Shown: positions 49,844-50,521 of the stretch, one piece after another
Layout of the letters: each line of letters opens with the position of its first letter
Numbering within the stretch: the first letter of the stretch is position 1
Assembly: GCF_001677475.2 (NCBI RefSeq)
Contig: NZ_CP015229.1
DNA from: Escherichia coli
Lineage (GTDB): Bacteria; Pseudomonadota; Gammaproteobacteria; Enterobacterales; Enterobacteriaceae
Strand: one strand, 5' to 3'
Length of the DNA stretch: 64,000 bases
The notes under the pieces: model-generated
What the model saw: only the letters and a program-made list of their open reading frames with translations
Told to the model about the DNA's origin: nothing
Databases searched by the model: none
Program-made: the position numbers and the translations under genes

Positions 49844-50521
49844 TTACAAAGAAGCGTTGTGTACGTCGCCTGCTGCACCGTAATCACTGATGATTGTCCA
49901 GCTTACATTTCCTGTTGTGTTGGCTGGAATTTGAAATGTCGCACTACTCATAGGAGCAACATATGTGGCATCAGGTAATGCTTTTCCGCCAATCTTGACC
50001 TGACTGAAGTTCATATAGTAAGCAGTTGGGTTGGTGACAGTGATTTGCTGTCCGCTACGTCGCCAGGTCAAATTTTTCACGACTTGTTCTGGTAATGTGG
50101 ACGAAATCTCATGTGGTCGATAAATCAATTTAATTCGCGTTTTAATGGCAATTTGCAAGGTGTTGACATTTTCCTGCTTTTCAGTTGCAGGTATCGTTTT
50201 AATATTCATCCAGTACATCGTTTCGCGATCTGTCGGCAGATTGCCGCCAGCGCGAATAATGCGCAACGCATTTTCTTCAGTGGCGCCCAGGCGGAACAGA
50301 GGGGGGGTAATAATAAAAGGGGCTTTGGCGTTGGTTTGCGGATCTCCATCGACCCATGATTGAATAAGGTAGGAGGATTTATCCGGATTTTTCAGGTGCA
50401 GAGACGTTTCTTTTTTATCGCCATTATAAATAACTCGTGTTCCTCCAACAATGACACCCGCCTGTGCAACAGAGTTGGATAATAACAATGCAGTAGCAAG
50501 AAAATAAGTCGATAATTTCAT
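49844..50521 (-). CDS. Periplasmic fimbrial chaperone (PapD/FimC family)
   Basis: 225 aa; signal peptide; conserved GTRVIY and YLIQSWV motifs. Confidence 0.9.
   Translation of the reverse strand: MKLSTYFLATALLLSNSVAQAGVIVGGTRVIYNGDKKETSLHLKNPDKSSYLIQSWVDGDPQTNAKAPFIITPPLFRLGATEENALRIIRAGGNLPTDRETMYWMNIKTIPATEKQENVNTLQIAIKTRIKLIYRPHEISSTLPEQVVKNLTWRRSGQQITVTNPTAYYMNFSQVKIGGKALPDATYVAPMSSATFQIPANTTGNVSWTIISDYGAAGDVHNASL

Follow-up and report, generated by a model that had tools for sequence, protein, structure and literature searches.

Within the 64-kb stretch of Escherichia coli DNA analysed here (the window), six genes of a fimbrial operon lie on the minus strand between fabF and pabC, with the chaperone gene in second place. 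The features discussed below are, in the order of transcription:

51339 to 51345, minus strand: second C7 run (G7 on the plus strand), in the divergent intergenic region between pabC and the fimbrial genes, some 210 nt before the ATG of the major subunit.
50596 to 51129, minus strand: major fimbrial subunit of 177 aa, encoded first in the operon (Pfam Fimbrial, 5.9e-19; NCBIfam major-subunit models under their cut-offs).
49844 to 50521, minus strand: FimC/PapD-like periplasmic fimbrial chaperone of 225 aa (Pfam PapD_N and PapD_C; FimC structures, E = 5e-48).
50301 to 50307, minus strand: C7 homopolymer (G7 on the plus strand) at Thr72-Pro73-Pro74 (ACC CCC CCT) of the chaperone, where natural frameshift alleles (C6 and C8) occur.
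47241 to 49814, minus strand: outer-membrane usher of 857 aa (Pfam PapC_N, Usher and PapC_C).
46217 to 47257, minus strand: putative tip-adhesin-sized protein, a 346-aa ORF (331 aa in related loci), assigned by position and size only.
45686 to 46210, minus strand: minor fimbrial subunit of 174 aa, FimG-like (NCBIfam, under cut-off).
45144 to 45671, minus strand: minor fimbrial subunit of 175 aa, FimG/FimF-like (NCBIfam, under cut-off).

The assignment of the second gene to a fimbrial chaperone, already made in the original prediction, was borne out by domain and structure searches. Both Pfam domains scored above their gathering cut-offs (PapD_N, PF00345, 1.8e-43 and 148 bits against 23; PapD_C, PF02753, 5e-14 and 52.8 bits against 22.8), and the protein aligned over its full length with solved structures of FimC (E = 5e-48), the FIVTPPLF segment of FimC included. 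In the alignment to FimC 6e14_C, chaperone residues R29 (in GGTRVIY) and K131 (in RIKLIYRP) correspond to R8 and K112 of FimC. The protein hence displays the features expected of a PapD-like chaperone, namely both Ig-like domains, the equivalents of the subunit-anchoring Arg8 and Lys112 (numbered as in mature FimC/PapD), the G1 donor strand and an operon that also encodes an usher and subunits. By contrast with these family-level matches, the chaperone fell under every NCBIfam equivalog cut-off for a named fimbrial type, the best score being that of NF011823 (266 bits against 309), followed by StiB (225 against 375), LpfB (190 against 360) and FimC (183 against 327). Since all products of the operon scored under the equivalog cut-offs, it would represent an unnamed type in the type 1/Lpf/Sti-like group. 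With type 1 (FimC), Lpf (LpfB) and Sti (StiB) fimbriae the operon shares the set of major subunit, chaperone, usher, large tip protein and minor subunits, but it differs from them in its fabF-pabC locus and in its sub-threshold scores. In type 1 fimbriae switching is brought about by the invertible element fimS, which the fabF-pabC operon lacks. The protein in the tip position (46217 to 47257; 331/346 aa) gave no match to Pfam or NCBIfam, and its receptor-binding domain may therefore be of an undescribed type.

The operon occupies an insert of 6.4 kb (45086 to 51484) with 44% GC, against 51% in the remainder of the window. Neither the chaperone gene nor the whole insert found a match among 5,426 complete RefSeq E. 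coli genomes (megablast and blastn), and the flanks of the insert reached 98.6–98.8% identity to E. coli at best. The GTDB species-representative genomes lacked an orthologue of the operon and contained only paralogous or related chaperones of at most 68% aa identity. The exact chaperone protein was found in about 195 contigs labelled Escherichia (381 index blocks), and the window is 100% identical to GCA_033745465.1 over 16.7 kb. The text of the catalogue of 38 chaperone-usher types of E. coli does not mention fabF or pabC (PMC3559732), and the six genes appear, as judged from these comparisons, to constitute an uncatalogued accessory fimbrial type. The operons that we compared fell into groups A and B, about 99.3% identical to the window, and a group C, with about 94% identity over the operon and 95% over the chaperone gene. 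Between the window and a set of genomes (L008–L021), TW11588 of cryptic clade IV among them (AEMF; PMC7716201), identity is 99.3% over the insert and only 93.4% over the flanks, and a second operon lineage, only 94% identical, occupies this fabF-pabC position in genomes whose flanks are E. coli-like. These figures together point to an exchange of the operon, at a syntenic site, among lineages of Escherichia in recent times.

The run of seven G residues lies exactly at 50301 to 50307 of the plus strand (50300 to 50308 reads A-GGGGGGG-T), and the coding strand reads ATT ATT ACC CCC CCT CTG TTC, that is I-I-T-P-P-L-F, at codons 70 to 76, in agreement with the run of Cs originally reported in this gene. 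It is the longest homopolymer within the coding sequence of the operon and is situated one third into the chaperone gene, away from its 5′ end. The claim that a slip of one base in either direction truncates the protein likewise held on in silico translation, which gave 104 aa for C6 and 81 aa for C8, against 225 aa for C7. Neither product contains the G1 donor strand, the K112 equivalent or any part of domain 2; because the frame is lost at mature residues 51–53, R8 would be retained and the protein would be deprived of the G1 donor strand, of K112 and of the entire C-terminal domain. In PapD/FimC chaperones Lys112, the G1 strand and domain 2 are all indispensable for donor-strand complementation and subunit delivery, and we can soundly infer that truncation of the chaperone would abolish pilus assembly. 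A change in tract length thus moves the gene in or out of frame in silico, as would be expected of a phase-variable locus mediated by an SSR.

Homopolymers can also support slippage of RNA polymerase, and such slippage, or programmed ribosomal frameshifting, could in principle yield an alternative product or rescue the C6 and C8 alleles. Slippage in enterobacteria, on the other hand, is known chiefly from long A/T runs, the C7 allele has an uninterrupted frame that encodes a full-length FimC-like protein, and the shifted frames close after 7 or 31 codons that contain no recognisable domain. With zero features in its support this explanation was rejected, and we consider it extremely improbable.

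The occurrence of such a run is only mildly surprising on statistical grounds. In the whole 64-kb window two G/C runs of at least 7 nt were found, against 3.8 ± 1.7 expected under a first-order Markov model, so that the window as such is not enriched; both, however, fall in the 6.4-kb insert, where 0.27 were expected (P of two or more about 0.04). Shuffling of synonymous codons from the codon pool of the operon produced C7 at the Thr-Pro-Pro site in 2.8% of the trials (P about 0.03) and any G/C run of at least 7 nt across the six genes in 5.5%. The C7 tract is mildly unusual, yet within reach of post-hoc selection from 64 kb.

Its origin can be traced to the protein motif and to the codons used for it. 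Residues T72, P73, P74, L75, F76, R77 and L78 (TPPLFRL) were invariant in 24 of 24 homologues with 56–100% identity, and an invariant Thr-Pro-Pro written as ACC-CCC-CCT makes a run of seven Cs. Codon statistics were drawn from a scan of GTDB species representatives, which supplied 77 related chaperone genes that contain this motif; at the motif the run of Cs measured 2 nt in 43 of them, 4 nt in 29, 3 nt in three, 5 nt in one and 7 nt in one, and CCC stood at Pro73 in only two. Among the five nearest homologues from outside Escherichia (67–70% aa identity), four lack C7 and read ACC-CCT-CCG, ACC-CCA-CCG, ACG-CCG-CCG and ACC-CCT-CCA, whereas Pluralibacter sp. (68% aa, the closest in the genome scan) has ACC-CCC-CCT as in the window. 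Since four of the five break the run, conservation of the tract is limited to descent. On these alignments C7 is evidently an uncommon codon choice inherited in the operon and is not conserved across the subfamily.

Among strains, C7 was found in all intact alleles examined from both operon lineages, save for one allele with the synonymous ACT CCC CCT. The chaperone was intact in all of the 24 longest contigs reached through the neighbouring major-subunit protein, and a scan of JGI metagenomes with a pattern open to any tract length returned one contig, with C7, too few for a frequency. Length variants were recovered as truncated members of the 90% protein cluster, and C6 or C8 was then confirmed by reading the DNA. 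A 168-aa ORF starting MEIRKPTPKPLLLLPPPLFRL is the signature of C8 and was present in SRR20814965, ERR14928244 and ERR14928266, whereas C6 leaves a pair of ORFs of 104 and 121 aa, found in DRR848730, ERR499316 and SRR27871420; ERR3061966 and ERR3061969 show the N-terminal 104-aa ORF of the same signature. C8 thus appeared in three runs and C6 in five, or about 1–2% against several hundred intact records, with two of the calls being probable errors, and all tract variants seen were of plus or minus one base. Exact look-up of the predicted C5, C8 and C9 products (80, 81 and 105 aa) found none, and the same search with C6 and C8 products of rarer alleles also found none; the 81-aa C8 fragment is missing because the gene finder evidently calls the 168-aa downstream ORF instead. 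A tract strictly seven long with no frameshifted alleles, the outcome that the original prediction had named as speaking against it, is not what the public assemblies contain, since both C6 and C8 alleles occur in them.

Each variant contig was compared with its nearest intact relative in order to weigh a further explanation, according to which all length variants would be artefacts of sequencing or assembly and the tract would be biologically stable at C7. Every C6 or C8 allele comes from automatic Logan assemblies of raw runs, with no curated NCBI protein record among them, and several of the carrier contigs are short and bear high contig numbers, which suggests low-coverage metagenomes. The lack of C6 and C8 among NCBI proteins is nevertheless expected, because annotated pseudogenes have no protein record. 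Two of the C6 runs carry other homopolymer deletions, a T6 to T5 frameshift in the essential fabG in ERR499316 and a C5 to C4 deletion in yceG in SRR27871420, which makes their C6 calls unreliable; these two are probably homopolymer sequencing errors. The remaining variants behaved differently. The C8 contigs (6.5, 2.1 and 1.4 kb) had no mismatches and no second indel relative to their C7 relatives, and the same C8 allele, on the common group-B haplotype, recurred in two unrelated projects (three runs). In DRR848730 (6.9 kb) the tract is the sole indel, on a window-type haplotype with 8 mismatches in 6.9 kb to its C7 relative L015. The contig of ERR3061966 (16.3 kb) has indel-free flanking housekeeping genes and an otherwise intact operon, while its chaperone gene combines C6 with an A4 to A3 deletion 107 nt downstream, right behind the new stop; the identical double lesion (C6 and A3) was present in ERR3061969, and, read from the two contigs, is evidently the pattern of a genuine, decaying pseudogene. 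The flanks of this C6 chromosome are 99.8% identical to L010 and 93.4% to the window, and its allele differs from that of DRR848730 by 16 mismatches. As the alleles lie on distinct haplotypes and in distinct chromosomal backgrounds, we count at least three events that are clean and independent of each other, with both directions represented. The long contigs from three of the carriers (L001 of 6.5 kb, L025 of 6.9 kb and L023 of 16.3 kb) are free of coding indels in their other genes, hundreds of runs through the identical pipeline gave C7, and the recurrence of one C8 allele between projects and of one double lesion between runs also speaks against artefact, which we regard as an unlikely account of the whole set. 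The tract had been put forward as either an on/off hotspot or a site of sequencing error, and both halves contain some truth, in that the recurrent frameshift hotspot is real and some of the variants (ERR499316, SRR27871420) are likely errors.

A change in tract length is not the only way in which this chaperone gene is lost. A 167-aa member of the protein cluster (P0129) diverges from the chaperone at nt 483 into GGTGATGCTGCCAACTTACTGATTTAG, and its contigs end there. Over 5,000 plasmids contain this sequence, and in R100 it is found 8 nt upstream of an IS1B transposase gene, a juxtaposition that identifies an IS1 insertion in the chaperone gene in four contigs. The four (L121–L124) derive from different samples and share the position, nt 483 (about 50039 in the window), with the C7 tract intact. 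Elsewhere in the operon, one strain has an usher of 818 aa instead of 857 (L019) and another a minor subunit of 125 aa instead of 173 (L012), so that erosion of the operon appears to be under way in several places and to differ from strain to strain. In E. coli and Salmonella, chaperone-usher operons are commonly found disrupted (PMC3559732, PMC3373541).

The second C7 run, at 51339 to 51345, varies among strains (L001–L026 and L111–L120), with the forms ACA-C7, ACAA-C7, ACAA-C6, ACAACTCCCCC and ACACCCTCCCC, and with A-C10 in one dubious run. On the plus strand it falls within the 17-nt spacer of a promoter-like TTGTGA-N17-TACAAT (51325 to 51353) directed toward pabC. The scan did not rise above chance, giving fewer matches than shuffled sequences, and promoter assignment in this region was dropped. 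Two intergenic A/T runs outside the operon also differ in length between the lineages, that at 56019 to 56025 having 7 nt in the window and 5 in group B, and that at 43819 to 43824 (acpP/fabF) having 6 nt in the window and 7 or 8 elsewhere; these differences are ordinary length polymorphism of non-coding homopolymers.

Observed were the tract itself, its truncated products in silico and naturally occurring C6, C8 and IS1 alleles; from these we consider it likely that the tract is an incidental slippage-prone run, through which an accessory fimbria is sporadically lost, rather than an evolved switch. The chaperone would require Thr-Pro-Pro at this position, and the ACC-CCC-CCT of this lineage would yield seven Cs as a by-product. 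A G:C run of 7 nt, as any in E. coli-type bacteria, would then constitute a local hotspot of one-base replication slippage, the presumed mutational mechanism behind occasional C8 (plus one) and C6 (minus one) mutants. Lacking the donor-strand-complementing G1 strand and the second domain, the mutant chaperone would leave this fimbria unassembled. The C6 and C8 alleles would represent rare, recent tips on otherwise identical haplotypes, pseudogene alleles through which a dispensable accessory operon sporadically loses its function, beside the IS1 knock-out, and selection for switching would be absent. The slippage step is in keeping with published work, in that indel rates in E. coli climb exponentially with run length and G:C runs of 7–8 bp are outlier hotspots in mismatch-repair-defective lines (PMC8510543).

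Several observations run counter to this incidental reading. Two of the chance estimates given above are low (P about 0.03 with the codon usage of the operon, and about 0.04 for both G/C runs of at least 7 nt falling in the operon), Pluralibacter sp., with 68% aa identity, has the same ACC-CCC-CCT, and the alleles with one base more or less otherwise match the ON alleles, as reversible switching would give. Some of these facts would favour an evolved contingency locus, in which slipped-strand mispairing flips the chaperone, and with it the entire fimbria, reversibly and with high frequency between ON (C7) and OFF (C6 or C8) as bet-hedging against host immunity or phage. On such a reading the plus-one and minus-one alleles in at least three backgrounds, otherwise the same as ON alleles, would be the switched states; the rare CCC codon, which makes the tract less likely than chance, would also speak for it; the other C7 run, polymorphic and situated in front of the operon, could take part; and the insert contains no dedicated regulator or invertible element that we could find. 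Several points speak against it. About 98% of the records are C7 and the variants are of one base only, whereas the poly-G/C tracts known to be phase-variable exceed this length (9 nt being the mode in C. jejuni, PMC3401435) and spread over a broad range of lengths. The position of the tract, one third into the gene, is not near the 5′ end, and four of the five nearest homologues do without it. A second deletion in the OFF lineage, together with the irreversible IS1 knock-outs, suggests that the gene is decaying rather than switching. Coding SSRs are avoided by E. coli-type bacteria, which possess mismatch repair (PMC3315296), and enteric chaperone-usher fimbriae switch by invertible elements or Dam methylation (PMC9820224). 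We therefore find the on/off switch of the original prediction unsupported as a programmed device, and an evolved contingency locus very unlikely. Only a slim chance, of much the same order, is given to a weaker version, in which the coding C7, possibly together with the polymorphic upstream run, would act as a low-rate but selected slipped-strand switch.

Comparison with known systems places the tract in similar terms. Phase variation is held to need spontaneous switching in both directions at about 1e-5 or more per cell in the absence of selection (PMC11868660). By this standard the 7C tract of meningococcal siaD has been classed as an ‘accidental’ mutation-prone tract and not as evolved phase variation, and the 8C/7C tract of streptococcal mga does not qualify either, because its spontaneous reversion is too rare (PMC11868660). 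The likeness to siaD of Neisseria meningitidis, where the capsule is lost, is close: a coding poly-C of 7 nt in a gene for a surface structure, a change of one base that abolishes the structure (as predicted here), and a length within chance expectation. The organism and the surface structure differ, the present case concerning a predicted chaperone of a chaperone-usher pilus in a host with E. coli-type mismatch repair. The mga tract of group A Streptococcus (8C to 7C) is similarly a short coding poly-C that slips to an OFF length, although mga encodes a regulator, and reversion there was observed in vivo under selection. Among pilus systems, the C-tracts of the Bordetella fim promoters and the G-tract of Neisseria pilC are SSR-controlled, pilC being an instance of coding poly-G in a pilus-assembly gene. 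For chaperone-usher fimbriae themselves, the one case cited for slipped-strand control is the Haemophilus influenzae hif promoter, whose repeat length alters pilus expression as has been proposed for the chaperone C7 (PMC9820224). The hif, fim and pilC tracts are, however, longer, vary widely between and within strains and have measured fast two-way switching, while the present tract has 7 nt and a single length in about 98% of the records.

Were a selected switch true after all, this would be the first chaperone-usher fimbria of an Escherichia lineage in which a coding homopolymer takes over the control otherwise exerted by an invertible element or Dam methylation, and proof of high-rate switching would add the chaperone-usher pili of enterobacteria to the systems with SSR-based phase variation; the evidence points the other way. 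Taken as the incidental run that we favour, the short homopolymer would mark a recurrent site of loss of function in an accessory fimbrial operon, with little import beyond annotation. There it may help to separate pseudogenes from sequencing errors at the locus and to interpret the presence or absence of the fimbria in genomes of E. coli-like and cryptic-clade Escherichia, and it could serve as a worked example of how an ‘accidental’ mutation-prone tract is told from an evolved phase-variation locus.
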